Positions 7,592 to 52,806 of a stretch of 64,000 nt of DNA are shown piece by piece. The stretch is from Candidatus Moraniibacteriota bacterium (GTDB lineage: Bacteria; Patescibacteriota; Minisyncoccia; Moranbacterales; UBA1568): assembly GCA_903859375.1 (NCBI GenBank), contig CAIOMK010000030.1:5238-69237 (forward strand). The letters run 5' to 3'. Numbering within the stretch: the stretch's first letter is position 1; every line of letters begins with the position of its first letter. Both the position numbers and the translations under genes were made by a program. A model generated the notes under the pieces. That model was not told the origin of the DNA, made no database searches, and was given only the letters and a program-made list of their open reading frames with translations.

Positions 7592-8182
7592 TTACTCTTG
7601 TTGATCGTTGTCCGTCGAATGCTGATCATACCGACCCAGTGGAAATTCATCCATCGACAGATATTGACGTTTCGCGCCGGCGCCGATGCTTTCCAGGAGC
7701 AGGATCGATGATACGGGTTCCGCAAGCGAAACGGTCTGTGGGAACATGGCAAGCTTCTCTTCGGGAAGTAAGGGGAACTCGGCCCGCTTGACCTGGGCGA
7801 GCGTCACACGGGGACGGAACCGTTTGCCGTCGACTTTTTTTCCTGCCAGATCACGCTCCAGCGCATTGCGAAGGGCGAGCAGTTGAGGACTCTCTTCCCC
7901 GACCAGTTGGATCATTTTCGTCGGTCCTTCCGCCGGTGCGAGCTCGATCGTGTCGAACATCAGATCGAACGGCTCGAACTCGGCACAGACCGCTTCAGCT
8001 TTTTCGGCGATCTCGACCGCGTGTTCGTCCGTCACGAATCCGAGAAAAAGCACCGTTACGAAAAGATTCTCCGGACGGGTCGGAAACATCGGCAGACTCC
8101 CCCACTTGGAAATGCCCTGTGCCAGGCGTGTACTCAATTTTCCGGACAAAGGTATCCCGAGATAGAGCTTTCGTTCGTTCAT
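7592..8182 (-). CDS. 2H phosphoesterase-like protein (LigT/ThpR fold) with both catalytic His positions substituted
   Basis: Start placed at the ATG at 8180-8182 (MNERKLYLG). Two LigT-like repeats, ENLFVTVLFLG and FRPRVTLAQV, align to the H-x-T-x motifs (ENLHLTLAFLG / FHPHITLAR) with H->F and H->R. Confidence 0.5.
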   Translation of the reverse strand: MNERKLYLGIPLSGKLSTRLAQGISKWGSLPMFPTRPENLFVTVLFLGFVTDEHAVEIAEKAEAVCAEFEPFDLMFDTIELAPAEGPTKMIQLVGEESPQLLALRNALERDLAGKKVDGKRFRPRVTLAQVKRAEFPLLPEEKLAMFPQTVSLAEPVSSILLLESIGAGAKRQYLSMDEFPLGRYDQHSTDNDQQE

Positions 8183-8268
8183 AGTGTGGATATCGATATG
8201 GGTCCAGAGTAACAGGAAATCATCAATGACGGCAAGGAAGCGAGCCCCCGCACGTTCCGACACCCTCC

Positions 8269-27744: not shown

Positions 27745-27773
27745 TTGACAATAATTTAATTATGATATATAAT
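27745..27773 (+). promoter_or_regulatory. consensus sigma70 promoter TTGACA-17-TATAAT
   Basis: TTGACA at 27745-27750 and TATAAT at 27768-27773 with a 17-nt spacer. Perfect match to both hexamers in a ~25% GC intergenic stretch. Confidence 0.5.
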
Positions 27774-27823
27774 ATATAGTCAATTTGAAATGTTATTTTA
27801 CAAAACAACCAAACGGAGCAACC

Positions 27824-28090
27824 GTGAAATACAATCCAATCGCGCTCATATCTATCCTGTTCGCATTCGGTTTGACCGGAGGTGACGCATTACTTATTCC
27901 GGTCGATGATCATTATTATCACCGGGAGCGTGTACTCATAGTCCCCGAACAGCAATGTTATCCTCCTCCTGTACGGGAACGGGTGATATTTGTCCCACCT
28001 TTTCGGTATGTTCCCGTGATGCCACGGCCGATGTCGTTCCCACGATACAACGACGGCCACAGGAGACATGGAAGATACGGCAGATACTGA
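27824..28090 (+). CDS. small secreted Tyr/Pro/Arg-rich protein
   Basis: GTG start at 27824 preceded by GGAG at 27815-27818; the ORF-track alternative is the ATG at 27785. Signal-peptide-like N-terminus (KYNPIALISILFAFGLTGGDA). Mature part rich in Y, P, R, H. Confidence 0.45.
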   Translation: MKYNPIALISILFAFGLTGGDALLIPVDDHYYHRERVLIVPEQQCYPPPVRERVIFVPPFRYVPVMPRPMSFPRYNDGHRRHGRYGRY

Positions 28091-28112
28091 TATCCGGATT
28101 CCATATATACGC

Positions 28113-28141
28113 CTTACTTTCGAGTAAGGCGTGTTTTTTTA
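28113..28141 (+). terminator. intrinsic terminator
   Basis: CGCCTTAC-TTTCGAG-TAAGGCG hairpin followed by TGTTTTTTT. Confidence 0.55.
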
Positions 28142-28248
28142 TCGTCGTCATACGGAGGCCGATATCCGAAACGCGTGTTTTCCAAATGGCTCAAAATACG
28201 GTATGATATAAGGTAGATATCGCCGGATAATACACATTATACCGATTT

Positions 28249-29373
28249 ATGCTCGAAGAAAAGAACGTCCTCCTCGTCACCCGGCCACTGTGTCTCCCGT
28301 GGGACGAAGCATCCAAGAATTTCGCCTATTTTCTCGCCAAATCCATATCTGGTCCGTCATTGTCCGTCCTCACTCACGGCATCATACGCGGTCTGCCCGA
28401 ATCGGTCACACAAAAGCAGATATATTCGTCCGGCCGATTCGATTCTCCGGCCAAAATACGCCTTTTTTTCTCGCTTCTTTTTTCGCGTGGATCATACGAC
28501 ATCACTCACTATCTTTTCACGCCCACAAAGGTGAGTTCGTCTTTGTTCAAGACGATACTCCATCCGACGAAAGGCAAAACCATCCAGACCGTCGCCACAT
28601 TGCGGGAAGATCTCTATGCGACCGAGGATCTTCGAAGTATTTTTTTTGCAGACCGCATCATCACCTATTCCGACACCTCGAAGAAGCGTCTCGATGAGAT
28701 CGGATTCACGAATGTCAAGCGGATCTATCCGGGAATCGACCTCGAACTTTATCAGTCCAAACCGAAAGACCCGTCGCTCATGGCATGGTTCAAATTTACG
28801 GAAGAGGATTTCATCGTCATCTATCCGGGAGAATACGTACGCCTCGGTGCGACAGACATGCTTGCGGACGGCCTGATCGCCCATTATCGGGAACAGCCGG
28901 AATCAAAACTGCGTTTCATGTGGGCATGCCGTATCAAGAACGAGGCGGATGCGAGAAAAAAGGAAGAGGTGCGCAAGAAGTTCGCCGATGCTGGAATGGA
29001 AGACCGTTTCCTTTTTTCGGATACCTTTGCCGATATGCCGAAGCTGTACAACCTGGCGGACGTCATCGCGTTCCCGGTCGGCGACATGAAAGGAAAGTTC
29101 GACGTCCCGCTTATCATCATCGAGGCATATGCCTGTGGCAAGCCGGTCATTCTTTCCGATATTCCCCTCTTCCATGAGTTTTCGAATGCGGATATTTCGG
29201 CGACCGTTCCGCGCGGAGACGGCAAAGCCTTCTTCTCGGTCGTAGACGAATTGGCTCATGACAAAAATCGCGTGGAGACGATGGGAAAGGCCGCCCGTGC
29301 CTATGTCGAAAAGGAGTTCGACCTGCTCGTGACCGCGAAACAGTACACGGAAGTCTACCGAAGTCTCGAGTAA
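28249..29373 (+). CDS. GT-B fold glycosyltransferase (divergent GT4-like)
   Basis: 374 aa. C-terminal half has a GT4-like pattern (FPVGDMKGKFDVPLIIIEAYACGKPVILSD). The N-terminal half is divergent. Confidence 0.5.
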   Translation: MLEEKNVLLVTRPLCLPWDEASKNFAYFLAKSISGPSLSVLTHGIIRGLPESVTQKQIYSSGRFDSPAKIRLFFSLLFSRGSYDITHYLFTPTKVSSSLFKTILHPTKGKTIQTVATLREDLYATEDLRSIFFADRIITYSDTSKKRLDEIGFTNVKRIYPGIDLELYQSKPKDPSLMAWFKFTEEDFIVIYPGEYVRLGATDMLADGLIAHYREQPESKLRFMWACRIKNEADARKKEEVRKKFADAGMEDRFLFSDTFADMPKLYNLADVIAFPVGDMKGKFDVPLIIIEAYACGKPVILSDIPLFHEFSNADISATVPRGDGKAFFSVVDELAHDKNRVETMGKAARAYVEKEFDLLVTAKQYTEVYRSLE

Positions 29374-29418: not shown

Positions 29419-29688
29419 ATGAACACAGAAAAACCGATCCACATCGCGACGATTTCAATCCTCGTGAAGGAGCGCGAGACGCATGCCGGAATAGTGAACG
29501 AGATTCTCTCCCGGCACGGCGACCGCATCATCGCGCGTCTCGGTGTGAATCTCGGTCGTGCCGGCGTACGCACATACAGCGGACTTATCGAAATCGTCAT
29601 CGAAGGGTCAAACGAAGAAATCAAATCGCTCTCCGACGAGCTCGATGCCCTCTATGGCATCGTCGCCAAGACAAACATTTTGGATTGA
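29419..29688 (+). CDS. TM1266-family ACT-like small protein (family annotated as 'iron-only hydrogenase system regulator')
   Basis: 89 aa. Pattern IATISILVKERE..VNEILSRHGDRIIARLGV.....GLIEIVIEGSNEEIKSLSDELDALYGIVAKT matches the TM1266-like family as remembered. No search was run. Confidence 0.45.
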   Translation: MNTEKPIHIATISILVKERETHAGIVNEILSRHGDRIIARLGVNLGRAGVRTYSGLIEIVIEGSNEEIKSLSDELDALYGIVAKTNILD

Positions 29689-29721
29689 CCCGCCCGCTCA
29701 TCCGTTCAATCTGTTTTTATT

Positions 29722-30462
29722 GTGAATGCAGACACACTGCACCGTGCCGATATCATAGAGCAGTCACTCGTTGATACGGTCCGAAAAGCTCTGAGTACCG
29801 ATCTCGTCAGTTTGTTTGTCGTAGGCAGTTACGCGAACTATGACATCGTTGAAGGATACAGCGACTATGACGTGCTCGCTTTCGTCGATACCCCCGACCC
29901 GGCAGGCTCACAAATCGATTTCGCAGTCCTTTCGAAAAAGTACGCAGTCGAAATCAAATGCACGGTTCGTCCGTTGTCCGATTTTAAAAACAGGATCCTC
30001 GACAACGACCGTGCAACGAGATTCGTCGGCAATCTCACGTTGCTCGACTTGAAACTTCACGCCCGGCTACTGTACGGAAAAGATATAGTCTCATTGATAC
30101 CGGACGTCCGGGACTTGCTCACAAGAGATCTTCAATCCGAATTACAGGCAGAATATACGCATGCCCTCGACGTAGACAAAGAGAAGAACATCTTTGTCCG
30201 TGAACCGAGGGACTGGTGCAACTATGTCATCAACATGTGTGGCGCCCTTTTACTTGCCGTAGGAATATCGGCGCGAAAGGATACCTATCCGGAGCTGATT
30301 TCACGTCATCATCCGGAGTTCGGAGGTGTACCGTATCTCAAGGAAGCGTTGCAGTTGAGGTCGACGATGAGTGTGCTTCATGTGAGCGACACAGAGCGGG
30401 ATAATTTCAAAAATGTCCTTGCCCTTTTCTTGGATGAATATAGAAGGTATACTTTTAAATGA
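29722..30462 (+). CDS. pol-beta superfamily nucleotidyltransferase (KNTase-like, NTase plus helical domain)
   Basis: GTG start. GS-x11-DYD motif (VVGSYANYDIVEGYSDYDVLAF) followed by an alpha-helical C-terminal domain. Confidence 0.6.
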   Translation: MNADTLHRADIIEQSLVDTVRKALSTDLVSLFVVGSYANYDIVEGYSDYDVLAFVDTPDPAGSQIDFAVLSKKYAVEIKCTVRPLSDFKNRILDNDRATRFVGNLTLLDLKLHARLLYGKDIVSLIPDVRDLLTRDLQSELQAEYTHALDVDKEKNIFVREPRDWCNYVINMCGALLLAVGISARKDTYPELISRHHPEFGGVPYLKEALQLRSTMSVLHVSDTERDNFKNVLALFLDEYRRYTFK

Positions 30463-32009
30463 GCCTTTTCGGCATTCCTCAACCTCATAATGACGACCTT
30501 ATGACGAACGACCAGCGATTCACAAAGAAAGGCGACTTCAAGAGCGAGATGAAGACCGACCGGATGAAAGTACCGGTCGTGTTTCATATCCAAGACGATC
30601 TCCTGCCGGCCGAAGGCACACTCGCCCAGCTCGAAAGCGTCGCAAGCAACGACGGCCTGTTCCGCCATATCGCCGCGATGGCCGATGTCCACTCCAAGCC
30701 GGGACGCAAGAACGCGACCGGCACGACGGTAGCCTCGGAAAAATTCATACTCCCGCAGGTGAACGATACCGATCCGGCATGCGGTATGCGTCTCGTACGG
30801 ACGAACCTGACCGAGGATGATCTTTCCTCGGAGGACATCGATACGCTCTTCGCCGCGCTCGTCGACCGTGTCCCGACCAAGGCCCTCGTCGGCACAGTAC
30901 TCCCCTACCGTGTCATCGTGGACATCTGTCGCAAAGGCGTGGGTGCCGCCGTCGAATACCTCGGGATCGAGACGAAATACGAGCGGGAAAATTCTCTTGA
31001 CCGTGGAAACTTTTTTGGAGAAGAGGTTTCCAAAAAGAAAATCTATGAAGTCATACCACGACTGTTTCTCTTCTTCGCGAAATTCCGATTGGGCATACTC
31101 GGAGCCGCCGGCAACCACTTCCTCGACCTGATGAAGGTCACCGACCTGCCGGACCCGGTGCTTGCGGAAAAGCTCGGGATCAGGAAAGGACAGTATGTCT
31201 TCATGATTCACTGCGGTTCCGGCATCCTCGGTCAATACACGATGTACATGTACACCGCCAAGAAGCGTGAGCATCTTTCGCAGGCGTTCATGGCGTGGCT
31301 CGGACGGATGACGTTTTTCACGTCACGCAGACATGTCATCGACGCCATCGCAACGAAAATCAAAGACTTCGATTTCGGCACCAAAGAAGAGCTCTTCACC
31401 TTCGACGGCGACGGCGAGGACGGGCGCATATATATGGAGGCACGCAACGCCTGCTCAAACTTTGCCCATGCGAATCGCGCCATCATCGCGCACAATGTGT
31501 CGCAAACGATCAAGGAAGTCCTCGGGCGTGATCCGGGCTTCGAGCTCGTCTATGATATGCCACACATCCTGGTTTCCGAGGAGGAACACTACGGCAAGAG
31601 CGCATGGATCCACCGCAACGGCACGAGCCGTGCCTACGGGCCGACCCGCATGGCAGGCCATCCCGTTTTCAGCGAGACAGGCGAACCGGCTTTCATCCCG
31701 ACTTCGATGTCGACAGACGGCTATCTCTGTGTCGGTACGGATGGCAACGAATCGACGTTCTTCTCCTGCAACCACGGTGCCGGCAAACCCAAAGTCGCCG
31801 CCGAATCGGTCGTCCCGACCAGTCGCGAAGAGCTCGACAAAAAACTCGAGGCAAGAGGTGTCCGTCTCTATAACGGTCGCTCATCCAAAGTCATCGAACA
31901 GGATTCCGCCCATTACAAGAACGCCGATGCCGTCATCGCGAGCGTCAAGGAGAACAATATCGTCAAACCCGTCGCCAAACTCCAGCCGGTCGCGGTGATC
32001 ATGTACTAA
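30459..32009 (+). CDS. rtcB: RtcB-family RNA 3'-phosphate/5'-OH ligase
   Basis: ATGA overlap with the NTase stop. Conserved RtcB metal and GMP-binding residues are present: DTDPACGMR, GNHF, HCGSG, HNV and CNHGAG. Confidence 0.8.
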   Translation: MSLFGIPQPHNDDLMTNDQRFTKKGDFKSEMKTDRMKVPVVFHIQDDLLPAEGTLAQLESVASNDGLFRHIAAMADVHSKPGRKNATGTTVASEKFILPQVNDTDPACGMRLVRTNLTEDDLSSEDIDTLFAALVDRVPTKALVGTVLPYRVIVDICRKGVGAAVEYLGIETKYERENSLDRGNFFGEEVSKKKIYEVIPRLFLFFAKFRLGILGAAGNHFLDLMKVTDLPDPVLAEKLGIRKGQYVFMIHCGSGILGQYTMYMYTAKKREHLSQAFMAWLGRMTFFTSRRHVIDAIATKIKDFDFGTKEELFTFDGDGEDGRIYMEARNACSNFAHANRAIIAHNVSQTIKEVLGRDPGFELVYDMPHILVSEEEHYGKSAWIHRNGTSRAYGPTRMAGHPVFSETGEPAFIPTSMSTDGYLCVGTDGNESTFFSCNHGAGKPKVAAESVVPTSREELDKKLEARGVRLYNGRSSKVIEQDSAHYKNADAVIASVKENNIVKPVAKLQPVAVIMY

Positions 32010-32018: not shown

Positions 32019-32052
32019 ATAATAAACAACGACCCACTCTCTGCTGAGAGGG
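32019..32052. terminator. intrinsic terminator after rtcB
   Basis: ACGACCC-(15 nt loop)-GGGTCGT followed by TTTTTG. Confidence 0.5.
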
Positions 32053-32066
32053 GTCGTTTTTGTATC

Positions 32067-32300
32067 TTACGAAATATACCCGCCGGCCCATTCCGCATAC
32101 AACCGATCCAGCCGGAGTTTCAATGCGACGATCACGTGTATCCTTGAATAATCGATCATGCCGGTTCTTCGGGAATATTCTTCCGCGAGTCTCATCTCCT
32201 TCGCGATGGAGTTCTTCGTCTGCGCGATCTTGGTAGGCCGGTAATTTCCGCCTCCTAATGAAAACAGTCTGCTGACCGCCTTTTGATTCAGGAATGCCAT
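32067..32300 (-). CDS. hypothetical small protein
   Basis: 77 aa ORF downstream of the Wzy-like gene on the same strand. No motifs recognised. Confidence 0.25.
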   Translation of the reverse strand: MAFLNQKAVSRLFSLGGGNYRPTKIAQTKNSIAKEMRLAEEYSRRTGMIDYSRIHVIVALKLRLDRLYAEWAGGYIS

Positions 32301-36791: not shown

Positions 36792-38405
36792 TCATTTCCG
36801 GATTAGTTGCTCGATGGAAAATCTTCCATAGATGCCAAAGTCTGGGGCGCTGTATGTTTCAGCGACCGATTTCGTGAGTTTTCCCTTGCTCTTCGCATTT
36901 CCGATGAGGACGATCGGTTCGCTTCCGGTCAACTGCTTTTTTTTGGACAACGGCTTGAGGGCGACACCCTTTTGTGCCGTGAAATACTCGATCGATTTCA
37001 GATATTTGAAGATATAGGTCTGCTTGCCTTTCAGAAGCACCGTCTCGCCGGACTGGAAATGGCTTGTAATGTATTCCGCTATGCCCTCGACTTCCCCAAG
37101 GGTGATTTCGGTCGAGGTCGATCCACTGACCAGAGTCTTCCCGGAATGATCGAGGAAGGCCGTCCATACGGCCATACTATTCGTACACAGGACGATTGCG
37201 AGTATCGAGAGCGTCGCTATGAGCATCTGCTTCCGATATGTACCCGCGAATACGGAAAGTGCCTCTATCCACAATCCGAGCAGTATGAACGGGACGAACA
37301 TCGACGCCAGATAAAACCGCAAGGAGATCTCATTGGCAAGCGGTATGAACAGAATGAAATTTATCAGGGCATACATGCCGGTCAGCTGGAGAAAAAGCTT
37401 CACCTGTCCGTCCGTCGATTTTCTGATTGCGCGTATCCACAGCCACGCGCCACCGACTGAAAACAAGACGGAAAGGAATAGTCCCACCAGAAACGGCAAC
37501 TTTCCCGACAGGCCTTTCGCCTTTTGATAAGTCGAGATGACCATGTCGGTCCCACATTCGTCATCGTTGCCGATTCCGGAAATGATGAATGCGTCGGCCT
37601 GTGCCTGACATACGGCATCGGTCGCCAGATCTCCGAGAAGGGTCTTCCCGTTCGCCGTCTTCGTCGTCGTGGCTCCGAAGAATGCCTTTACGTTCGCACC
37701 GTTCGTCTGTGCCAGATCGATGACCTGTCCGATATTGAGCGCGAACGCCACGGCAAAGACGATCGCCGCCGGACGCCACAATGAAGGAGTCTTTCTGCCG
37801 ATGAACATGAAAAAGAGTAGCGCGGTTATCGGCATGACAACCAGAAGTACGGTGTGGAGCTGTACGCCGATGCCGAGCGCCACGCCGGCGACCAGAGCCC
37901 ACCGCAACTTCTTCACGGTCTTCGCGTCCGCAATCGCGAGCAGCGCGTAGAGGAACAGTATCGAATACAACGGCGCCGAATTCGGATTCCATGCGAAGCG
38001 AGCATACTTTATCGCGAAAACGCTCACACTTAGGCCGGCGGTCAGCAGGAGTGCCGTACGAGCCTGAAACGCCCTACGCATCAATAGAAACAGGAGCGGG
38101 ATGGTCAGTATGGACGCGAACAGGTCCGGATAGGCCATCTTGTCAGGGCTGTTTCCGAACACTTTCGCGGAAACGATCTGCAGATAATAAAATGCACCAC
38201 CGAGCTTGAACGTCGTGCCTCCTGCCTTCGGACCGAGCAACGGCCATGCCACATTGCCATCAACCACATGACTCACCAATGACGCGTCACGGGACTGATC
38301 CGCGTTGAACCGGAGCCAATCATGGAACTGATAGGTCCTGAGGAATATCCCGACCGATATGATGCCGAACAGGATGAGTGCGACTGTATTGATTCTTATC
38401 TTCAT
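36792..38405 (-). CDS. GT-C fold glycosyltransferase, ArnT/PMT-like (GT39/GT83-type), paralog A
   Basis: 537 aa, about 11-13 TM helices. N-terminal signature FLRTYQFHDWLRFNADQSRDA in the first extracytoplasmic loop. Divergent C-terminal soluble domain. Confidence 0.7.
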   Translation of the reverse strand: MKIRINTVALILFGIISVGIFLRTYQFHDWLRFNADQSRDASLVSHVVDGNVAWPLLGPKAGGTTFKLGGAFYYLQIVSAKVFGNSPDKMAYPDLFASILTIPLLFLLMRRAFQARTALLLTAGLSVSVFAIKYARFAWNPNSAPLYSILFLYALLAIADAKTVKKLRWALVAGVALGIGVQLHTVLLVVMPITALLFFMFIGRKTPSLWRPAAIVFAVAFALNIGQVIDLAQTNGANVKAFFGATTTKTANGKTLLGDLATDAVCQAQADAFIISGIGNDDECGTDMVISTYQKAKGLSGKLPFLVGLFLSVLFSVGGAWLWIRAIRKSTDGQVKLFLQLTGMYALINFILFIPLANEISLRFYLASMFVPFILLGLWIEALSVFAGTYRKQMLIATLSILAIVLCTNSMAVWTAFLDHSGKTLVSGSTSTEITLGEVEGIAEYITSHFQSGETVLLKGKQTYIFKYLKSIEYFTAQKGVALKPLSKKKQLTGSEPIVLIGNAKSKGKLTKSVAETYSAPDFGIYGRFSIEQLIRK

Positions 38406-38414
38406 ATGTTTTCA

Positions 38415-40073
38415 TTATCGGGCACTATTCGCCATAACCGTATATACGTATGTTTTCTGACCTATTTTCTCATACTCCGTATTATTTTCCGAATCCAATT
38501 CATTGTTCACGTAAAATACGGGGGCACCGGAACGCGAAAACGTCCCGATATCCGTATCATCCACCCATATGAGGTTTTTTCCTTGTTCCGCAATCAGATA
38601 GGACAACGGCTGAAATGAATAATCCATGATTTTGTAATCCCCTCCCAGGTAGATGTCTGTCTGTCCGCCAGAATGGTCAATCAGATATTTCACTATCGGT
38701 TCGATCTCGCCCAAGACGACCGAATGCGAATAGATACGTTTCTGAGCCTGCAGTTCTTCGATGATGGACGAGTATGCCTTGGCATTCGACGCCAGTAAAA
38801 TCAAGAAAACGAGAGAGACAATCGCCCACCCCCATTTTTTATGGAGCCCGATCGCATATTCGGTCAGGAAACCGAGAAACATGAACGGCACGAAAAATGC
38901 GAAGCTGAAATATCTGAGTTCAAGCTTCTCTCCGACGATAGGCAACATGATCAACAGTGACAATCCGAGATATGAAACGACGAACCTGATCCACATTCGT
39001 TTATCACGGTCTTTCTCCCGCAGGAAGCGGTATGCGAGCATCACGTACCCGAATATCGAGAATGCGAGTCCGGCGAACAGCGATGGCATGAATATCCGAC
39101 TCTTGAAATCTTTCAACGTCCTTCCGAATAACAAGGAGTCATAATAGTATGCACAGCTGTCCTGTCCGAATGACGAAATCATATACGAGTTCGCTTCGAT
39201 ATGACAGCCGATATCGTTTATCGGTCCATATCCGCGATTGACAGACGCTTGCCCATCGACCGCCTCGCTCTGTGCAAAATAGTTCAGGAATATTCCCATA
39301 TTAGCGAAACCCGTCTCCGCCTCACTCCGTATCTGTCCGATGTTCAACGCTGCCGCAATGACGCACACGACGAGCAATCGTTTCCATACGCCTCTTTGCC
39401 GGACCAACATATGAACGGATACGAGCAGAAAGAACGATGAGAACAATATGAGCAGTATGACATGCAGCTGGATTCCCACACCGAGTGCCGTCCCCAGAAG
39501 GACAACCCATCGCCATCGAGCCTGTTCACCCTTGATTTTGAATTCATACAGGGAAAGCAGAAACAACAGGACAAAGAACGGTATGAGGTTCGAATTCCAT
39601 GCGAAACGCGAAAAGCGGACAGCGAAGAATGAGACGGCATACAGGCCCGTCAGAGCAAGTGATACGCTGTCATCAAAGAGCTTCTTAAAAAAGAAAAATA
39701 GGAGCGGGATGGACAGGATACCGAAAAAAACATCAGGATACGCCATAGCCTCGGCTTTCATACCGAATATTTTCGCCGAAAGTATCTGGAAATAATAATA
39801 TATCGGGCCCACTTTGAAATGCGTTCCGTTGTCGGTCGAATAGTTTCCCATCGCCGGCCCGAGGAGCGGCCACACCGCACCGTTCTCGACGACGCCTTGA
39901 ACCAGGCTCGCATCTCGGGACTGATCGCCCTTGAACTCGAGCCAGTCGTGGAAATGGTATGTGCGCAGGAAGAGTCCGACTGCCAATATCGAAAACAATG
40001 CCGTCAGAAGAGCAACTTTTTTTGATATCCGCAGGCCATGTATAACGTATTCGTTCATAGTTGTGGGTATCAT
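38415..40073 (-). CDS. GT-C ArnT/PMT-like glycosyltransferase, paralog B
   Basis: 552 aa. FLRTYHFHDWLEFKGDQSRDASLV signature. Lies 9 nt from paralog A. Confidence 0.7.
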   Translation of the reverse strand: MIPTTMNEYVIHGLRISKKVALLTALFSILAVGLFLRTYHFHDWLEFKGDQSRDASLVQGVVENGAVWPLLGPAMGNYSTDNGTHFKVGPIYYYFQILSAKIFGMKAEAMAYPDVFFGILSIPLLFFFFKKLFDDSVSLALTGLYAVSFFAVRFSRFAWNSNLIPFFVLLFLLSLYEFKIKGEQARWRWVVLLGTALGVGIQLHVILLILFSSFFLLVSVHMLVRQRGVWKRLLVVCVIAAALNIGQIRSEAETGFANMGIFLNYFAQSEAVDGQASVNRGYGPINDIGCHIEANSYMISSFGQDSCAYYYDSLLFGRTLKDFKSRIFMPSLFAGLAFSIFGYVMLAYRFLREKDRDKRMWIRFVVSYLGLSLLIMLPIVGEKLELRYFSFAFFVPFMFLGFLTEYAIGLHKKWGWAIVSLVFLILLASNAKAYSSIIEELQAQKRIYSHSVVLGEIEPIVKYLIDHSGGQTDIYLGGDYKIMDYSFQPLSYLIAEQGKNLIWVDDTDIGTFSRSGAPVFYVNNELDSENNTEYEKIGQKTYVYTVMANSAR

Positions 40074-40076
40074 TTC

Positions 40077-41729
40077 CTATTCTTGTTTCACTGTCTGATA
40101 TATATACAGGCTTTCACCACTCCAGCGATTCAGAACGTCCTTCTGATCTGTCGTTTTTGCACAGCCCATAAAGAACGTCCGGGCATCCTCCGGAACATTA
40201 CCATACGAATCATTCGCCCTCATCACTGTAACTCCCCGTTTATCCGCCAAATATATTACCGAATTGAGTGCAGACGACAACCGCCTGTCTTTGGACACAT
40301 ACACGCTTTCCCTGTCCGAATGGGCGGAAATAAAATTCACGAGAGGCTCGATTTCACCAAGCGTCGTCGCGCCGGAACAGGTTGCGTTCTGCGCCGAAAG
40401 TACCGCGGACTTTCCTCCGACGACGGTCAGATTGAAGAAGGCAATCAATATGAACAAAATGACGACAAACACAATCGCATTCACACGGTTCCAACTCTCG
40501 AATATTGATTTTACAAGCAATCCGAACAAGACATACGGCACAAAAAAGATGAAACTGAAATATCTCAGGTCGGCGATGGAACCGTCACTCAAAGGGTACA
40601 TGACGATGAACCCGAGTCCGCAATATAAAGCGAACAATCGGAGGAAATATGACTTTCTTTCTGTGTTTTCTTTCCAGACATTCCGAGCCAACAAGACATA
40701 TCCGGCAGTGGACAAAACGAGACCGAGGAGCAGAAGAGCAGCATCGCTCGCACTATGAGGATTCCTTACGTGGATATCACTGAAGTCTCCTGAAAGAATT
40801 TTGGCATAATCATGGGTGCAGTTGCTGAGCCCGAACGACGATCCATATGATGACAGATACAGGAAATTCGCCTCGATATGACAGCTCACGTCGTTTCCCA
40901 GCTTGTTCAGGATACCTCCACTGGCAGGATTTATCGAGGCGTCTGTGTTGGAAAAAAATCCAAAGAAGGCTTTGGTATTGCCGAAATCCGTCATCGACTC
41001 GTTCACTATCTGACTCCCGTTCAATAACAAGAATATCGAAAGGACAATCGCCCATTCTTTCCATATGACAGGGTCCTTCCTCATCGAAAAGAAAAAGACG
41101 AAAAAAACCACACCTGAGAAAAGGATCATCGTTATGGCATGCAGTTGGAAACCAACCCCCCATGCGATTCCGAGCAATATCGCCCACAACCACGGACGTT
41201 TCTCTTTCTCCCCTATGAATTTCAGGAGGGAATACAGGAAGAGCAGGACAAAAAACGGGATCGGGTTGCTGCTCCATGCGAATCGTGAATAACTGATGAG
41301 ATATGCCGATATCGAATAGAGGCCCGTAAGACCCAATGATAGGTTCCTATCGAAATACATCCTCATGAAGAGAAAGAATAGAGGGAGTGAAAGTATGGAG
41401 AAGAACACGTCCGGATATGCCAACGTATCCGGATAATTCCCAAACACTTTTGCCGATACGATCTGGAAATAATAATAGATTGGTCCCACATGGAAGGACT
41501 CTGCCTCAGTGGCTCCCGAATGGCTCAAAAAAGGTCCGAGGAGAGGCCATGAGGATTCTCCGGAGATGACTTGGTCTACACGGATCGCATCCCTACTCTG
41601 ATCGTCTCTGAATTGCAGCCAATCGTGAAAATTGTAGGTACGAAGAAAAACACCGACTGCCATGATGGCGAGCAGAATCCATATATGCCTCGAAACAGGC
41701 CACATCTTCCTCCACGAAAATGGCGTCAT
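40077..41729 (-). CDS. GT-C ArnT/PMT-like glycosyltransferase, paralog C
   Basis: 550 aa. FLRTYNFHDWLQFRDDQSRDAIRV signature. 3-nt gap to paralog B. Confidence 0.7.
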   Translation of the reverse strand: MTPFSWRKMWPVSRHIWILLAIMAVGVFLRTYNFHDWLQFRDDQSRDAIRVDQVISGESSWPLLGPFLSHSGATEAESFHVGPIYYYFQIVSAKVFGNYPDTLAYPDVFFSILSLPLFFLFMRMYFDRNLSLGLTGLYSISAYLISYSRFAWSSNPIPFFVLLFLYSLLKFIGEKEKRPWLWAILLGIAWGVGFQLHAITMILFSGVVFFVFFFSMRKDPVIWKEWAIVLSIFLLLNGSQIVNESMTDFGNTKAFFGFFSNTDASINPASGGILNKLGNDVSCHIEANFLYLSSYGSSFGLSNCTHDYAKILSGDFSDIHVRNPHSASDAALLLLGLVLSTAGYVLLARNVWKENTERKSYFLRLFALYCGLGFIVMYPLSDGSIADLRYFSFIFFVPYVLFGLLVKSIFESWNRVNAIVFVVILFILIAFFNLTVVGGKSAVLSAQNATCSGATTLGEIEPLVNFISAHSDRESVYVSKDRRLSSALNSVIYLADKRGVTVMRANDSYGNVPEDARTFFMGCAKTTDQKDVLNRWSGESLYIYQTVKQE

Positions 41730-41741
41730 ATCTTCGAACGT

Positions 41742-43361
41742 TTATCGGATCCGATATATACCCACCTGCCCGACGTCCCGATGGTCGATGAAGGTCATCC
41801 CGCCGATTTCCCGATTACCGCCATCCCCGAGTATCGACCCCACATAGAATGCAGAAGCACCGGAAGGGACGCCTCCGATATCGATGCCTCGTTTTAGGGT
41901 CAACCCCTTTTCAGCAGACAGATATATGAGTGTCTTGTTGTATGGGGAATAGTATTTGGTTCCGCCGAACAGGTATGCCGTCTGTCCGGAAGAATTTTCG
42001 ACGATAAAATCGGCAAGCAGTTGAGCCGCATCCAAAACGAGATATCCGGAATCCGCGCGCGTCTTGTCCGCCAACGAAAGAGCCTCGGTACGGATGGACG
42101 AGAGGTTTGTTCCGATAAGGATGGCGAACAGTGCAATCGTTATCGCAAGATATTTCCTCGGATAGTTCCGCTTCAGGTATCCGATCAACAGGCCGATGAA
42201 GACGAACGGCAGAAACGTCATGTGGATGAAATAGCGCATCGGTGCCAGATCGATGATCGGCAACATGACCAGAAATGACATCACGGAATACAGGAGGACG
42301 ACTCCGGTGAAGTATTTTTTCGTCTTTTCCTGTTCCTTCCACGTCATATATACGAGCATCCCATACCCGAAGACCGAAAAACAGAGGCTCGCGAATATTC
42401 CAAGCCGGGCGGATTTACTGCTCGGCAGACGCAATGCGGAATTCGGTTTCATATTTCTCGCCTTCGAGTAGAGAAAATCGCAGTTCTCCTTGTTGCCGAG
42501 AGACGAGGAAATAAGAGAATTCGCCTGCGCCGTACACGCGATATCGAGCACCGTATTCCTCAGGAACCGGCTTCCCCCGCTATTGTCAGACTTGTCCGAA
42601 AACGATGCGAGGAAGACTTTCGTATTCGCGTAATCGGTTCGCTGTTCATGAATAATCTGACCGGTATTCGCCGCGACGACGAGTACGGCTACCACCGCCC
42701 ACCGACTCCATGTCTTCCGACTTTTTATCATCAGGAACAGGAACGACACTCCGGCTGTTCCCAGCATGGTCAGGAGCAGTATCGCGTGCAATTGGGAGCC
42801 TATCCCGATTGAAATACCCAAAAGGATGATCCATATCCATCGAGTCTTTTCTTTCGCAAGAAGAAACTCCCAAAGTGAAATCAGGAACAGTATCACGAAG
42901 AACGGAATCGGGTTCGGATTCCATGCGAACCGTGAATACTCGATCGCATAATACGATATGCCGTACAGTCCCGTCAGGGACAATGCGACTTTTTTATCGA
43001 AATACCGCTTCAGGAACACGTAGAGGAGCGGGATGGACAGAAGATTGAAGAACAGGTCCGGATACGCCAGCTTGTCGGGACCGATTCCGAATATCTTTAC
43101 CGAAACGATCTGAAAATAATAGTATGCCGGACCGAGGAGGAATCCGGTATTCCCCATCGACGATCCGAGCAGCGGCCAAGGGGCGTTGTTTTTCACCACG
43201 TTCTCCACGAGGAATGCGTCCCGAGCCTGATCGTTCCCGAAATGAAGCCAATCGTGGAAATTATATGTCCGAAAAAAGACGGCGAGCACGAAGAGAGCTA
43301 CGATCATAAAATAAAACGTCCGTTCCGACCGGATAATCCGGCAGATTCGTTCCTTCATCAT
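41742..43361 (-). CDS. GT-C ArnT/PMT-like glycosyltransferase, paralog D
   Basis: 539 aa. FFRTYNFHDWLHFGNDQARDAFLV signature. Confidence 0.7.
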   Translation of the reverse strand: MMKERICRIIRSERTFYFMIVALFVLAVFFRTYNFHDWLHFGNDQARDAFLVENVVKNNAPWPLLGSSMGNTGFLLGPAYYYFQIVSVKIFGIGPDKLAYPDLFFNLLSIPLLYVFLKRYFDKKVALSLTGLYGISYYAIEYSRFAWNPNPIPFFVILFLISLWEFLLAKEKTRWIWIILLGISIGIGSQLHAILLLTMLGTAGVSFLFLMIKSRKTWSRWAVVAVLVVAANTGQIIHEQRTDYANTKVFLASFSDKSDNSGGSRFLRNTVLDIACTAQANSLISSSLGNKENCDFLYSKARNMKPNSALRLPSSKSARLGIFASLCFSVFGYGMLVYMTWKEQEKTKKYFTGVVLLYSVMSFLVMLPIIDLAPMRYFIHMTFLPFVFIGLLIGYLKRNYPRKYLAITIALFAILIGTNLSSIRTEALSLADKTRADSGYLVLDAAQLLADFIVENSSGQTAYLFGGTKYYSPYNKTLIYLSAEKGLTLKRGIDIGGVPSGASAFYVGSILGDGGNREIGGMTFIDHRDVGQVGIYRIR

Positions 43362-45016
43362 TTTTTCATTAATGTATATATCATGATCCTCCCGAACCGT
43401 TCATATCCGAGAATGGCGTTGCCATCTACCTTGTCCCCGATCATATACGGCCTCGATTTGATACCGTCTATGTAGAAAAATCGTGTCCCACTTACGAAGG
43501 GTTCCTTGTTTCCCGGACGTACCACAACAGACCCCGATCGTTTGGCGATATAATCGAACGGTTTGAGAAATCGTTTCAGATACATCGTCGATCCATCGAT
43601 ATGGACGGTCCCAAGAGAATCGGTATTCGCGATGAGAAAGGCGACCATCGATTCGGCTTCGCCCAATATGCTGTCGTCGACGGAACTTGCGCTTTTGTCC
43701 ACATACGGCCGTGCCGAAACTATCAGCACAGACACATTCACAAAGAGGAACATCACCATGACAAGTACGTCGGCGGCACCCAGTCGTATCGCTTTCATTT
43801 TTTTCCCAGCGCATGTGTCCAACCAGAGTCCGAGCAAAATGAACGGGATGAAAAACAGGATACTGAAATAACGGACTTCTATCTGGGAAGCCACCGGAAC
43901 GAGCACGATGAACGAAATGAAATTATAGAAAAGTATCAATCCGAGGAACGTGCGTTTCTCTTCGCGCGGTTCCTTTCTCAGGGCTCGTATGGCGAGAACG
44001 TATCCGCCGATTGAGAACAACAATGTCGCAATCATCTCCGCAATGAACAAAACGCCATTTACTGTGGCTCCCGCCGGAACCAACCGGTTTATTTTGAAAC
44101 TCTTGGCAATATTGAACATTCCTCCGCATTCCTGTACGTTTATCGCGGAAAATATGATATGAGTGTTCGCCTGCATCTGACACGATGTGATGAGCGATAT
44201 GTTCCGCAGCAACGTATTCCCCTGCACGCTTGATTCACTGCCGGCACCCCTAAATAACTGACTGCTATTGGCGCCACCGGTACGTAGCTCGTACGAGATC
44301 TGGCCGTAATTCATCAGGAGAAAGAAAGAGAGCACCACTACGAAAATCTGCCACGTAAGATTTTTTTTCACGAGCAGGTACACGCACATTCCGACGGCTG
44401 TCAGAGGCATGATCAAAAACAGCAGGGTATGCAATTGGATGCCGACGCCCATACCGACACCGACCGATATGGCCGAACGATATTTTCCCGCTTTTCCATT
44501 GTCCGCAAGGCCGAGGAGTCCGTAGAGGAACAGGAGCGTGAAAAAAGGGATAGTATTAGGATTTGATGCGAACCGCGAAATCTGAATCGCGAAAAGCGAC
44601 ACACTCAGCAATGCGCTCAGGAAAAGTGACATTCGTACGGAAAAATATTTCCGCAGGAAGAGAAACAGCATCGGAATCGAGAGAATCGAAAAAATCAAAT
44701 CAAAATAGGCGATCTTGTCAGGAGCGTTTCCGAAAACGAGGGCCGACACATATTCGGCCTGATAGTAGAGCGGGCCGAGATAGAACTGTGTATTCCCCGC
44801 CTGCGGACCGAGCGCTGGAAGAGGCGCCTTGCCCGTGATGGCGTCGCTGATATAAGTCGCATCACGCGCCTCGTCGGGGCTGAATCGGAGCCAGTCATGA
44901 AACTGGTATGTACGGCAGAATACGCCCACGATCATGATGGCGAGCAATACCCAGAAATATTTCGGAACCGCCCTGATCCGCGAAACGATAGCTTTATTCG
45001 TCATAGGAAACAACAC
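43358..45016 (-). CDS. GT-C ArnT/PMT-like glycosyltransferase, paralog E
   Basis: 552 aa. FCRTYQFHDWLRFSPDEARDATYI signature. 4-nt overlap with paralog D. Confidence 0.7.
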   Translation of the reverse strand: MLFPMTNKAIVSRIRAVPKYFWVLLAIMIVGVFCRTYQFHDWLRFSPDEARDATYISDAITGKAPLPALGPQAGNTQFYLGPLYYQAEYVSALVFGNAPDKIAYFDLIFSILSIPMLFLFLRKYFSVRMSLFLSALLSVSLFAIQISRFASNPNTIPFFTLLFLYGLLGLADNGKAGKYRSAISVGVGMGVGIQLHTLLFLIMPLTAVGMCVYLLVKKNLTWQIFVVVLSFFLLMNYGQISYELRTGGANSSQLFRGAGSESSVQGNTLLRNISLITSCQMQANTHIIFSAINVQECGGMFNIAKSFKINRLVPAGATVNGVLFIAEMIATLLFSIGGYVLAIRALRKEPREEKRTFLGLILFYNFISFIVLVPVASQIEVRYFSILFFIPFILLGLWLDTCAGKKMKAIRLGAADVLVMVMFLFVNVSVLIVSARPYVDKSASSVDDSILGEAESMVAFLIANTDSLGTVHIDGSTMYLKRFLKPFDYIAKRSGSVVVRPGNKEPFVSGTRFFYIDGIKSRPYMIGDKVDGNAILGYERFGRIMIYTLMKK

Positions 45017-47176: not shown

Positions 47177-48982
47177 TTATTCGGCACCGTCGATTCGGAT
47201 AGCGTTCGCATTGTCGTCCGTGATACCGAACACATCCTTCCAAAAAACTCGGTCGGTGTTGGTCTTCGCCTTGTTGAATTTATATTCCTCCACGATACGG
47301 TTCGGGAAGTTCAATTCATACACCATCAGCTGTCCGAACTGTTTCGAATCGATGGCGGTGATGTCGGTCCCGAATTTCTTGGTCACGGGAGCGAGTCCGT
47401 TCTTGGCCGGCGTGACCGCAAAGAACTGCGCGTCGGCATCGGTCTTGTTCGTCATCGTTGCCGATCTCAGGCTCGCATCATGCTTCGAGTAGAACAGGAA
47501 TTCGATCGGCCTCACATGCTCCGGCTTCACATAATAGTACAATGTCGACCCTTCCTTGTGGCGCGCGTACATCCAATCGGTCACTCCTTTCAGCTGTCCC
47601 AGGGTAACCCCGTCCTTCGCTTTCAGGATCAAGGTCCGTTTCACAGTGAAATCGCTCTTCTGAGACTTCGCCTGCTCTTTGAACCATGCGTACGTCCCAT
47701 AGGTGTTCCATCCCACAATACCCGCTGTGAGGAGGAGTGCGATCGCGATGGCATGCGTGCGTTTCAGCTTCTCATCCAGATATTCGAAGACGAGTCCGAG
47801 CAGTATGAACGGGACCGCGAACACCACGATATAGAACCGCGGCCGGAGCTGGAACGCGACCGGCACCGTCAGTATCGTAAACACCGCCACCCAGGCGATG
47901 ATCAGGACGAGGAAGTCCTGTTGCGTGTCCGTGAGCGTTTTTTTCCTCAGATTGCGGAATATGAGGACGGCGCCGGCAAGAAATATGAGCGCCGTGACGG
48001 AAAGCGCCGGCAATTCAGCGGTCATCGAACCGCCATAGCACTGGGATGTCGTCACGAGGCAGTAATACTTGGCATTCTCCGTCACCGTCTTCACGAGCTT
48101 GTCGGCAAACGGCTTTTTCTCAGCCTTCGATCCGAGCGCCTCGATGAAATTCTTGGTGTTCTGTCCGTTCTTATAGTATTCGCTGATGAACACCGGCGTA
48201 TAGAAGAACGAGAACACGAGCAGTGCGATTCCGGAATACAGCGCGATCTTTTTGAGCGTTTCTTTCTTCACGCATGCGACAATCGACTCCTTCTTCCAGA
48301 GTCGGAAATGCGTGATAAACAACAGTCCGGAAATACCAACGAGACTGAAAAATCCGAAAAAGTGCAGCTGCGAGCCGATCGTAATACCGGTCGCCCACAT
48401 GATCAGCCACCATTTCCTACGTCTCCCGTCCGGCTCGTTCAGGAATCGGAGCAAGCCGTAGAAACTGAGCAACAAGAAGAATTGGAGCGAATTCGGATTC
48501 CACGCGAATCGCGAATACTGGATGATGATGAACGAGAACGCATACATCGCCGTTATGAGCAGAGCGTTCCGTTTGGAGAAGTACAGACCGGCGAGGAGGA
48601 ATACCAGCGGTATCGCGAGTATGGAAAACAGTAGATCAGGGTAGGCGTAGACATACGGCTCCGTCGAATTGAACAACACTCCGGACGCGTATTGGAAATA
48701 ATAGAATATCGGCCCGAGGCGCAGAAACCCGTGTTTGAGAGCCACAGCACCGGCGCGAGCACCGAGCAAAGGCAAATATTGCGGCCCGTTCAAGACGGCA
48801 TTGCTGATAAGGAGCGCGTCCCGGCTTTGGTCCATCTTGAAATAGAGCCAGTCGTCGAATGTGTAGGTGCGCACGAATATCGCCGCGAGGAGGATGGCCA
48901 GGAGCGCCAACCACACCGCATTTTTGCTGATGAATTTTTTCAGGTTCTGCATATGTTCGTTACTACTCTTCGAGACTGTCAT
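47177..48982 (-). CDS. GT-C ArnT/PMT-like glycosyltransferase, paralog G
   Basis: 601 aa. FVRTYTFDDWLYFKMDQSRDALLI signature. Confidence 0.7.
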   Translation of the reverse strand: MTVSKSSNEHMQNLKKFISKNAVWLALLAILLAAIFVRTYTFDDWLYFKMDQSRDALLISNAVLNGPQYLPLLGARAGAVALKHGFLRLGPIFYYFQYASGVLFNSTEPYVYAYPDLLFSILAIPLVFLLAGLYFSKRNALLITAMYAFSFIIIQYSRFAWNPNSLQFFLLLSFYGLLRFLNEPDGRRRKWWLIMWATGITIGSQLHFFGFFSLVGISGLLFITHFRLWKKESIVACVKKETLKKIALYSGIALLVFSFFYTPVFISEYYKNGQNTKNFIEALGSKAEKKPFADKLVKTVTENAKYYCLVTTSQCYGGSMTAELPALSVTALIFLAGAVLIFRNLRKKTLTDTQQDFLVLIIAWVAVFTILTVPVAFQLRPRFYIVVFAVPFILLGLVFEYLDEKLKRTHAIAIALLLTAGIVGWNTYGTYAWFKEQAKSQKSDFTVKRTLILKAKDGVTLGQLKGVTDWMYARHKEGSTLYYYVKPEHVRPIEFLFYSKHDASLRSATMTNKTDADAQFFAVTPAKNGLAPVTKKFGTDITAIDSKQFGQLMVYELNFPNRIVEEYKFNKAKTNTDRVFWKDVFGITDDNANAIRIDGAE

Positions 48983-49200: not shown

Positions 49201-51045
49201 ATGTGTCGTATACTTCAAAAATACACCGTTCATTTCATCATCTTCATAGTTCTCGCGCTCAACCTCTTTCTCAGCCTTTCCCGACTCGGTACCTATTCCG
49301 CGGTCGACGAACCGTACTGGACCTACGGTCGCACGTCCAAGTTCTGGACCGCCGTCGATCAACATAAGTGGAAATCGACCAATATCAACGACAAGCCGGG
49401 TATCACGGTGGCCCTCTTGTCAGGTTTCGGTCTGCTGAAATACGACCCGATGCAGTACGAGCATATCAGAGGCGAGATCAAAACAGATGCGCAACGGGCG
49501 GATATCGACTCGATCAATTTCTTTTTCCGACTACCGATTTTCCTCTTCTGCACCTTCATGCTTCCGCTCTTTTATTTTTTCCTCCGTAAACTGTTCAGCA
49601 AGACGACGGCGCTCATCGGGTTCGTCTTCATCGGTCTCTCGCCGATCCTACTCGGTATCTCACTCATCATCAATCCGGACTCGCTTCTCTGGATATTCCT
49701 CCCGCTTTCCCTCCTCGCCTACCTCACCTACCAAAAGAAGCAAAAAACGGGTTATCTGATCGCGACCAGCGTCCTCCTCGGACTTTCGCTTTTGACGAAG
49801 TATGTCGCGAACATACTCTATATCTTCTTTTTCATCCTCCCGTTCCTCGAATATGTCTTCGCGGAAAAAAAGCCAGAGCTGAAAGGATATCTGATTAAAT
49901 CATCCAAAGACTATCTCGTCATCGCCACCGTCTCGATGGCGACCTACTATCTCCTGTACCCCGCCGCATGGGCACATCTGAACGTGCTTCTCGAGGGGAC
50001 GTTCCTCAGCAAAGCCTTCGTGAAAGTCTGGCCCGTCTTCGTCGGCATCATCGCCCTGATGGCCGCCGACATATATCTGTTCAAGAACCGTCTCACGCAA
50101 CCGCTCCTCGACGTCCTGTCGCGGTACCGGACCGTCCTCTCGACGGCGCTCATATCCGTCTTCATTATTCTCATCGCCGTCACGATGGCAGACACCTATC
50201 TGGGAATGAAACCATTCGACCTCGAGGCGATACTCGCTTCTCCGAAAGGCATAGGCATAAGCGGGAGCGGACTTCCGGCCGCCATCGCCGGAGCATTCCT
50301 TGCGAACACATACAGTCTCATTTTCGGAATGGATCCGATCGTCTTCATTTTCCTCATACTCGGACTGTTCTCCGTACCGTTTTCGAAACAGACGTATTCA
50401 TGGGAGAAGAAAACCACGATCTATTTCGTCTTGTTCATCGTCCTCTATTATTCCGCTTCCACGTTCAACGACGTGATCGCGACGATCCGGTACCAGATAA
50501 TCCTCTATCCGCTCGCGTTCATCATCGCCGCCATCGGCGCCACACGGCTTCTGTCATGTGAACGGGTGCGCCGGCACGTCCCATCAATCGCCGCGACGGG
50601 AGCGCTCCTCCTTATCCTCGCGATTCCGTTGTTTCAGGTAAAACCGTTCTATTTCACGTACGCCTCGCCACTTCTTCCCGAACAGTATCTCCTCAACACC
50701 AAGGACATGGGAGACGGGAGCTTCGAGGCCGCCTCCATGCTCAACGCCCTTCCGAACGCACGCGATCTCGTCGTCTGGTCAGACAAGGGAGCGGTCTGTA
50801 CCGAATTCATCGGCACCTGCAATATCGGCTTCAGCAAGAAAGATATAACCGGCAAGAGCTTCGATTATTTCGTCATCTCGACGGGGCGCATCAGCCGATC
50901 GATGAAACTTTCGGGTGCCGTGAACGACATCATCGACTTCAGGAAGCTGTACGATGAGAATACACCATACGAGGCCAGTATCGTCGTCGGTGGCCGTCCG
51001 GACAATTTCGTGAGGGTTATCAAAGCGTCGGCAATCGCCAAATGA
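49201..51045 (+). CDS. GT-C ArnT/PMT-like glycosyltransferase with canonical DE-type loop motif, paralog H
   Basis: 614 aa. AVDEPYWTYGR in the first loop is the classical DE motif of the PMT/ArnT family (DEPYY-like). Multi-TM. Confidence 0.65.
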   Translation: MCRILQKYTVHFIIFIVLALNLFLSLSRLGTYSAVDEPYWTYGRTSKFWTAVDQHKWKSTNINDKPGITVALLSGFGLLKYDPMQYEHIRGEIKTDAQRADIDSINFFFRLPIFLFCTFMLPLFYFFLRKLFSKTTALIGFVFIGLSPILLGISLIINPDSLLWIFLPLSLLAYLTYQKKQKTGYLIATSVLLGLSLLTKYVANILYIFFFILPFLEYVFAEKKPELKGYLIKSSKDYLVIATVSMATYYLLYPAAWAHLNVLLEGTFLSKAFVKVWPVFVGIIALMAADIYLFKNRLTQPLLDVLSRYRTVLSTALISVFIILIAVTMADTYLGMKPFDLEAILASPKGIGISGSGLPAAIAGAFLANTYSLIFGMDPIVFIFLILGLFSVPFSKQTYSWEKKTTIYFVLFIVLYYSASTFNDVIATIRYQIILYPLAFIIAAIGATRLLSCERVRRHVPSIAATGALLLILAIPLFQVKPFYFTYASPLLPEQYLLNTKDMGDGSFEAASMLNALPNARDLVVWSDKGAVCTEFIGTCNIGFSKKDITGKSFDYFVISTGRISRSMKLSGAVNDIIDFRKLYDENTPYEASIVVGGRPDNFVRVIKASAIAK

Positions 51046-52787: not shown

Positions 52788-52806
52788 GACTGATACGATA
52801 TTCACA

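Follow-up and report, generated by a model that had tools for sequence, protein, structure and literature searches.

The gene for an RtcB-type RNA ligase in a 64,000-nucleotide (nt) stretch of DNA from a Candidatus Moraniibacteriota bacterium (contig CAIOMK010000030.1, positions 5,238 to 69,237; hereafter the window) is preceded by genes for a TM1266-like protein and a nucleotidyltransferase (NTase) of the pol-beta superfamily. An initial annotation had read the three genes as an inserted, translationally coupled RNA-repair cassette. However, comparison with related loci shows that the three genes do not stay together as a set. RtcB is an old resident of a glycan island, and its two upstream neighbors lie in a slot with changing content; the group is probably not a dedicated RNA-repair cassette. 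The three co-directional open reading frames (ORFs) are present exactly where the initial annotation had placed them, all on the plus strand: the TM1266-like protein (29419-29688, 89 amino acids [aa]), assigned by a PF21699 match and by AlphaFold2 (AF2) modeling with a Foldseek match to 2NZC; the NTase (29722-30462, 246 aa, GTG start), a member of an orphan family with an NTP_transf_2-type core; and the RtcB 3′-phosphate/5′-OH RNA ligase (30459-32009, 516 aa in its longest ORF), assigned by a PF01139 match. The spacer of 33 nt between the TM1266-like gene and the NTase gene was likewise as described.

The window and all the related loci retrieved share one gene order around RtcB, including loci whose RtcB is 91, 90, 86, 84, 71, and 70% identical to that of the window. 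It consists of a GT4 glycosyltransferase, a membrane protein of about 655 aa, a protein of about 140 aa, a GT1 glycosyltransferase, the variable slot, RtcB (then a small ORF), Wzy_C, a dTMP-kinase-like protein, and a Polysacc_synt flippase. The GT1 orthologue lies upstream of RtcB in all Moranbacteria loci compared. Because the same block is found at RtcB identities of 70 to 91%, RtcB has not been inserted into the glycan island. The surrounding gene content bears out the location of the triad inside such an island, but the idea of an inserted cassette has to be given up, since RtcB occupies the same position in these relatives and the GC contents of the TM1266, NTase, and RtcB genes (0.53, 0.48, and 0.56, compared with 0.52 for the window) are within the window range. 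No plasmid or phage matches were found.

What changes between lineages is the interval between GT1 and RtcB. In the window it holds the TM1266 and NTase genes. In four loci of a sister lineage (L001, L005, L014, and L015) it holds NUDIX, TM1266, and NTase genes; their NTase, TM1266, and RtcB proteins are 61, 66, and 90% identical to those of the window, and the NUDIX gene is extra. The slot carries NUDIX, TM1266, and a metallo-beta-lactamase (MBL)-fold hydrolase in L020; a 75-aa NUDIX remnant, TM1266, and MBL in L011; TM1266, MBL, and a 110-aa ORF in L006; and DUF7768, TM1266, and MBL in L009 and L010. In L012 and L013, TM1266 and MBL are followed by an NTase cut at about residue 128 by an IS3-type insertion sequence (IS) element and then by the contig end. 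The slot is empty in L007 and contains an Eco57I-like gene and an unknown gene in L008. The gene next to TM1266 is thus an MBL-fold hydrolase more often than an NTase, and this hydrolase belongs to the UPF0173 "metal-dependent hydrolase" equivalog (NF001911, 217 to 222 bits). At an RtcB identity of about 70%, most of the Moranbacteria loci examined lack both TM1266 and NTase. The full triad has been kept in the one sister lineage.

The control regions of RtcB also differ among close relatives. The RtcB genes of L001 and L009 are preceded by a conserved promoter-like element, which the window lacks, and by spacers of 117 to 460 nt; the operon structure is therefore not conserved among close relatives. 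The element, GCATGACAAAATGCC-TTTTTACGGTAT(T/C)CTTGAT, is located at 8761-8800 in L001 and 7307-7345 in L009 and occurs also in L005 and L014. It reads as an ATGACA-17-TATyCT promoter that overlaps a short hairpin and a T-run, and it is kept in relatives whether NTase or MBL precedes it. A fixed 33-nt spacer was considered as a mark of precise gene replacement and was ruled out, since the spacers between TM1266 and the next gene range from 14 to 127 nt across loci and their sequences are unrelated.

Several further features were observed in and near the slot. The NTase homologue of L012 and L013 (7014-7511) is intact as far as about residue 128 but diverges beyond it up to a stop codon; an IS3-OrfA-like ORF (MTKQPKNFTPQEKSQIAIAAIKG) follows at the contig end. 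We therefore interpret this NTase as an IS-disrupted copy. Small genes of the nucleotide-salvage type recur near RtcB in relatives, namely DUF7768 (L009, 5530-5934), a sub-threshold nucleoside 2-deoxyribosyltransferase-like ORF (L007, 7750-8202), and a NUDIX gene closest to the isopentenyl diphosphate (IPP)-isomerase/YfcD type (L001, 7072-7662). RNA-repair partners such as a kinase or methylase were sought in the slot of L008, which gave only a sub-threshold NOL9-cupin match and none in the PDB. On the other side of RtcB, between RtcB and Wzy_C, the window carries a 77-aa ORF (32067-32300, minus strand) that is 79% identical to the ORF in the same position in L020 (3910-4140) and has no Pfam, PADLOC, or PHROG match. 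In other relatives this interval holds unrelated ORFs of 181 to 231 aa, and it therefore constitutes a second variable slot.

RtcB itself is a complete member of its family. The protein passes the PF01139 profile that had been proposed as a check (252.3 bits with a cut-off of 27, covering positions 1-424 of 426). Alignment with the Pyrococcus horikoshii enzyme supports the claim that all conserved metal- and GMP-binding residues are present: D105, C108, N219/H220, H251, H369, and H439 correspond to D95, C98, N202/H203, H234, H329, and H404. More than 900 homologues were found, the best 120 of which are at least 65% identical and occur in Moranbacteria/Patescibacteria; the homologues carry the names Candidatus Moranbacteria, Moraniibacteriota, or Patescibacteria, and those of this group that reach 65% identity number in the hundreds. 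Neither RtcA, RtcR, nor archease was found by the Pfam scan among the approximately 50 ORFs of the window or among the genes tabulated for the related loci. Another RNA-end enzyme, a LigT/2H-phosphoesterase of the 2′,3′-cyclic phosphodiesterase superfamily, is encoded on the minus strand at 7592-8263, 21 kb from RtcB. A 298-aa antisense ORF (30378-31274, minus strand) lies wholly within the NTase 3′ end and RtcB and most likely represents a shadow ORF, the RtcB gene being rich in GC.

The ATGA overlap between NTase and RtcB, on which the proposal of translational coupling was based, does exist in the DNA but is probably not used for translation. It adds 14 nonconserved residues to RtcB. The RtcB homologues begin about 5 residues ahead of a conserved block, FTK.GDF(K/R)SEMKTDRMKVPV, which corresponds to a start at Met15 of the window protein. 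ORF calling may thus have produced the overlap as an artefact, and the start supported by homology is the ATG at 30501 (Met15), which gives a protein of 502 aa. Overlaps of 4 nt occur in 6 of the 39 same-strand gene pairs of the window, the median gap is 33 nt, and the coding share is about 92%. Because such overlaps and gaps are common here, tight spacing carries little information, and translational coupling is not sustained.

The predicted transcription unit also extends further than had been supposed. The GT1-family glycosyltransferase (28249-29373, plus strand, 374 aa, with Glyco_trans_1_4 and Glycos_transf_1 matches) ends 45 nt before the TM1266-like gene. No promoter or terminator was predicted in this gap, so the unit is probably GT1-TM1266-NTase-RtcB, running from a weak promoter near 28.2 kb, where weak promoter-like sites lie upstream of GT1 (28179-28231), to the terminator at 32.03 to 32.06 kb. 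The latter, an intrinsic terminator 3′ of RtcB (32028-32063, plus strand) with a GC-rich, interrupted 13-bp stem followed by a U-run, is as strong as had been claimed (ΔG of −23.5 kcal/mol, z of −5.2; none of 200 shuffles was equally stable). The upstream promoter/terminator unit, in contrast, is not a boundary of the triad, since it encloses a separate gene and lies upstream of GT1. This small stand-alone gene (27745-28134, plus strand) has its own perfect sigma70-type promoter (TTGACA-17-TATAAT, 27745-27773), a GGAG Shine-Dalgarno (SD) sequence (27815-27818), a GTG start at 27824, an 88-aa ORF extending to 28090, and a strong terminator with a 12-bp stem (28107-28134). Its product has a signal-like N terminus and a Pro/Arg/Tyr-rich tail; there is no Pfam match and no homologue or DNA match in the related loci. 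A noncoding RNA linked to RtcB (e.g., Y-RNA-like) was considered for this unit and rejected, given the lack of an Rfam match, the presence of an SD sequence and the 88-aa ORF, and the absence of the unit in relatives. Near the triad, no other insertion is clearly lineage specific.

The 89-aa protein belongs to the TM1266-like family in the Pfam sense, with 46.6 bits to PF21699 (cut-off 27), but its score of 52.0 bits with the TIGR03959 equivalog is below the cut-off of 60.8; of the family assignment made earlier, the Pfam match and the fold thus stand and the equivalog does not. The sequence matches PDB 2NZC (TM1266) with an E value of 0.005. The AF2 model (predicted local distance difference test [pLDDT] score of 89) has a beta-alpha-beta-beta-alpha-beta topology and matches 2NZC_A in Foldseek with an E value of 2.5e-7, TM-scores of 0.84/0.93, and a root mean square deviation (rmsd) of 1.4 Å; the next fold matches are NikR C-domains and ACT/PII-like proteins. 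The protein is an ACT-like domain from end to end and contains no cysteine. A test for NikR found no N-terminal ribbon-helix-helix (RHH) domain and no Cys for a His3Cys nickel site. It had been noted that hydrogenase context was lacking, and indeed no [FeFe]-hydrogenase or HydE/F/G gene is present in the window (about 50 ORFs) or in 10 related loci. The protein is most likely an oligomer that binds a small ligand, rather than a hydrogenase regulator. Nineteen homologues were found, all of the Moranbacteria type. The TM1266-like homologue of L020 (P0144, 841-1134, 97 aa) is wholly divergent beyond about residue 62, perhaps as the result of a frameshift.

The NTase, described earlier as KNTase-like with a GS..DYD motif, was correctly recognized as a pol-beta nucleotidyltransferase. 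Its N-terminal NTP_transf_2-type core contains G35, S36, D48, D50, and D87, in the arrangement G35-S36...S47-D48-x-D50, and its C-terminal helical domain is family specific. G35, S47, D48, and D50 are invariant in 20 of 20 family members, and S36 is present in at least 90%. In the profile check with NTP_transf_2 (PF01909), the window protein scores 19.6 bits, just below the gathering score of 21, whereas 16 of the 20 members match (best E value of 4.3e-7); 6 of the 20 match PF18765. The AF2 model is that of a two-domain NTase with some resemblance to ANTs (pLDDT of 79). The best Foldseek matches are ANT(9), AadA, and KNTase, followed by Hailong HalB and MntA, with TM-scores of 0.4 to 0.57 at 12 to 17% identity; those to ANT(9) and AadA have E values of 1.5e-6 to 3e-4 and TM-scores of 0.48 to 0.57, with an rmsd above 8 Å. 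In sequence searches of the PDB, the matches were confined to the N-terminal core, namely to minimal NTases and, marginally, to KNTase (E value of 0.08). The invariant catalytic Asp pair and a fold resembling that of ANTs make it most likely that the enzyme is active and transfers a nucleoside monophosphate (NMP) to a hydroxyl acceptor.

The family is rare and its genomic context is not fixed. Only 6 close homologues were found in 5.8 billion proteins and 37 representative clusters (E value of at most 1e-3) in 1.84 billion proteins, which describes a very small pol-beta family that is apparently restricted to Patescibacteria-type metagenomic contigs. Four distant members (33 to 45% identical) have no RtcB or TM1266 neighbor. 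One adjoins YidD, a PNPOx-like gene, YggU, and Nfo (L016), another a MutT-type NUDIX gene and FdtA/polysaccharide genes (L018), and a third lies beside GatCAB (L019); the fourth is on a short contig that carries neither TM1266 nor RtcB (L017). Adjacency of NTase and RtcB is limited to the window and the one sister lineage represented by L001, and L012 and L013 add a third lineage with the IS-disrupted NTase in the same slot, where the contig stops before RtcB would be reached. The NTase family is thus context independent, and its tie to RtcB is not specific.

An NTase and a small ligand-binding-fold partner together with RtcB had been considered an unusual combination, but RtcB with a pol-beta NTase is a published theme. 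RlaP (PF10127), which is named for its association with RNA ligase, consists of an NTase domain and a C-terminal helical domain and adds one or two NMPs to RNA 3′-OH ends (PMC12776372), and a further, unrelated pol-beta NTase occurs in the RFH-RtcB systems (PMC6514570). Membership of the NTase in RlaP was rejected: 0 of 20 family members match PF10127 at an E value of at most 1, whereas the T4 NrdC.11 control scored 46.6 bits, and hhalign against NrdC.11 gave a probability of 0.3%. An antimicrobial resistance (AMR) or mobile origin likewise found no support, as the protein has no match among the NCBIfam models (AMR models included) or PHROG and no plasmid or phage copies. A HEPN-like Rx6H motif in the C-terminal domain was rejected too, R213-x6-H220 not being conserved in the family.

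We favor, with reasonable though far from complete confidence, the explanation that a resident RtcB is accompanied by two independent, lineage-specific accessory genes in a variable slot. RtcB would then be an RNA ligase with a housekeeping role that Candidatus Moranbacteria inherit vertically and that has a fixed position in a conserved cell-envelope glycan block. It would seal an RNA 3′-phosphate or 2′,3′-cyclic-phosphate to a 5′-OH via His439-GMP and Mn2+, a mechanism suggested by the conserved active site and the established biochemistry of RtcB. In one Moranbacteria sub-clade, the interval between GT1 and RtcB would hold a changing subset of NUDIX, TM1266-like, UPF0173 MBL-fold hydrolase, and NTase genes. 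The simplest history would start from an ancestral NUDIX-TM1266-MBL-NTase array in this sub-clade (RtcB at least 84% identical), from which different lineages then lost different genes. The window lineage would have kept the TM1266-like and NTase genes, the former being the sole constant member in the sub-clade. The NTase would transfer an NMP from a nucleoside triphosphate (NTP) to a hydroxyl acceptor, and co-transcription with RtcB would reflect genome compaction and not a dedicated pathway. If so, gene adjacency and 4-nt overlaps in the compact genomes of the candidate phyla radiation (CPR) are no proof of functional coupling. Moreover, Moranbacteria conserve RtcB strongly as a core gene, and neither the 64-kb window nor the related loci contain RtcA, RtcR, or archease, which raises the question of which RNA the ligase joins in these reduced genomes.

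Some observations weigh against this explanation. The TM1266-like gene is always upstream of RtcB within the sub-clade, in at least seven distinct lineages, and the varying NUDIX, MBL, and NTase genes belong to classes able to act on nucleotides or RNA ends. In the window, NTase abuts RtcB with no space for the separate promoter seen in relatives, and the expression of the two genes really is coupled there at the transcript level. Furthermore, genuine cooperation of a pol-beta NTase with RtcB is known from RlaP (PMC12776372), and the contexts inspected were those of four distant NTases and of two RtcB loci with identities of about 70%.

These points would be accommodated by a CPR-specific RNA end-healing and sealing cluster of NUDIX, TM1266-like, MBL, NTase, and RtcB genes, of which different lineages keep different subsets: the non-RlaP NTase would rebuild trimmed RNA 3′ ends, MBL and NUDIX would prepare ends, and RtcB would seal them. 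Such a cluster would agree with the co-occurrence of TM1266 and RtcB in every sub-clade locus, with the nucleotide- or RNA-end-type nature of the accessory enzymes, with the adjacency of NTase to RtcB in the window, and with the precedents of RlaP and the RFH-RtcB NTase, which have the same two-domain build (PMC12776372, PMC6514570). However, we regard it as unlikely. The distant NTase family members are not linked to RtcB, the family has no match to RlaP, and RtcB orthologues at 70 to 71% identity lack all four genes, so that the association is phylogenetically shallow. In addition, the MBL is the UPF0173 equivalog and not of the RNase Z/J type, the two NUDIX genes beside family members are of different subfamilies, and NTase is IS disrupted in one lineage and lost in several, although RtcB is always kept; each of the accessory genes is freely lost. 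The cluster, if it existed, would offer a first clue to the function of three uncharacterized families. The more specific proposal of a modular CPR system of RNA-end repair, in which a core RtcB is served interchangeably by the orphan NTase, the UPF0173 MBL, NUDIX, and a TM1266/ACT-fold ligand sensor, is less probable still. If true, it would supply first functions for two families, TM1266-like and UPF0173, and would be the third case in which a pol-beta NTase was independently recruited to RtcB.

It could also be proposed that the TM1266-like protein is a dedicated cofactor or sensor of RtcB, either an archease-like activator or a metal- or ligand-responsive regulator, and that the middle gene is incidental. 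The protein is the only constant neighbor of RtcB in the sub-clade, whichever gene lies in the middle, it has the ligand-binding NikR-C/ACT fold, and the 64-kb window showed neither archease nor RtcA. Nevertheless, we think this very improbable, as the gene is confined to the shallow sub-clade in which descent can explain the co-occurrence, Moranbacteria RtcB orthologues elsewhere have no TM1266 at the locus, the lack of cysteine precludes a NikR-type Ni site, and the gene is never directly beside RtcB, another gene or a long spacer always lying between them. There is equally little likelihood that the NTase is an ANT-like resistance enzyme or a defense or toxin-antitoxin NTase (MNT-HEPN, Hailong HalB, or CBASS-like) acquired independently of RtcB. 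Its best structural matches (ANT(9), AadA, KNTase, HalB, and MntA), its weak cyclase/PDC matches in PADLOC (E values of 0.01 to 0.05), and the sporadic distribution of the family would fit such an origin. However, the TM-scores of these matches are low at low identity, PDB sequence matches do not go past the N-terminal core, NCBIfam models including those for AMR give no match, plasmid or phage copies are absent, the Rx6H residues are not conserved, and no HEPN protein, HalA-like membrane effector, or CBASS effector lies nearby.

In the wider island, the window contains five tandem paralogues of PMT_2-type (GT-C) membrane glycosyltransferases of about 540 to 550 aa and at least three more nearby (36792-45016 and 47177-48982, minus strand; 49201-52787, plus strand). 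Close to the array are genes for a GH28 glycoside hydrolase (52681-54486) and, at 54518-55741, for a DIE2/ALG10-like protein. The expansion of PMT_2-type proteins is unusually large for a small CPR genome.

We compared the proteins of the slot and RtcB with the systems known for each. The NTase resembles RlaP and the RFH-RtcB NTase in having an N-terminal catalytic and a C-terminal helical domain and in being encoded directly upstream of RtcB. However, unlike RlaP, none of its 20 family members matches PF10127, its link to RtcB is found in two close lineages only and is absent in distant members, and its family comprises about 37 clusters compared with more than 10,000 RlaP sequences. The best global fold matches are the two-domain enzymes of about 250 aa, ANT(9), ANT(3″)(9) AadA, and ANT(4′) KNTase, from which the NTase differs in showing 12 to 17% identity, TM-scores of about 0.5, no match to an AMR hidden Markov model, no carriage on mobile elements, and substrate-binding residues that cannot be mapped. 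With respect to defense systems, no partner of the MNT-HEPN, Hailong, or CBASS type (HEPN Rx4-6H RNase, HalA, or CBASS effector) is present among the neighbors in the window, and the PADLOC matches to cyclases and PDC are generic noise of the NTase core. The earlier idea of a toxin-antitoxin-like NTase pair finds no support, and R213-x6-H220 is not conserved. The 89-aa protein has the same ACT-like fold and the same size as TM1266 (2NZC, PF21699, TIGR03959) and the C-terminal domain of NikR, but it falls below the TIGR03959 cut-off, lacks a HydE/F/G or hydrogenase context, and has neither an RHH domain nor a Cys. The label "iron-only hydrogenase regulator" on TM1266-like proteins is misleading here. 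The RtcB of the window matches P. horikoshii PH1602 and E. coli RtcB over the full length and keeps the metal-binding residues and the GMP-accepting histidine, and it presumably carries out the same GTP/Mn2+-dependent sealing of 3′-phosphate and 5′-OH ends. It differs from the known systems in having no RtcA, RtcR, archease, PrfH, or Ro/Y-RNA partner in the window, and it is not part of a sporadic repair operon but a core gene of Moranbacteria within a conserved glycan block.

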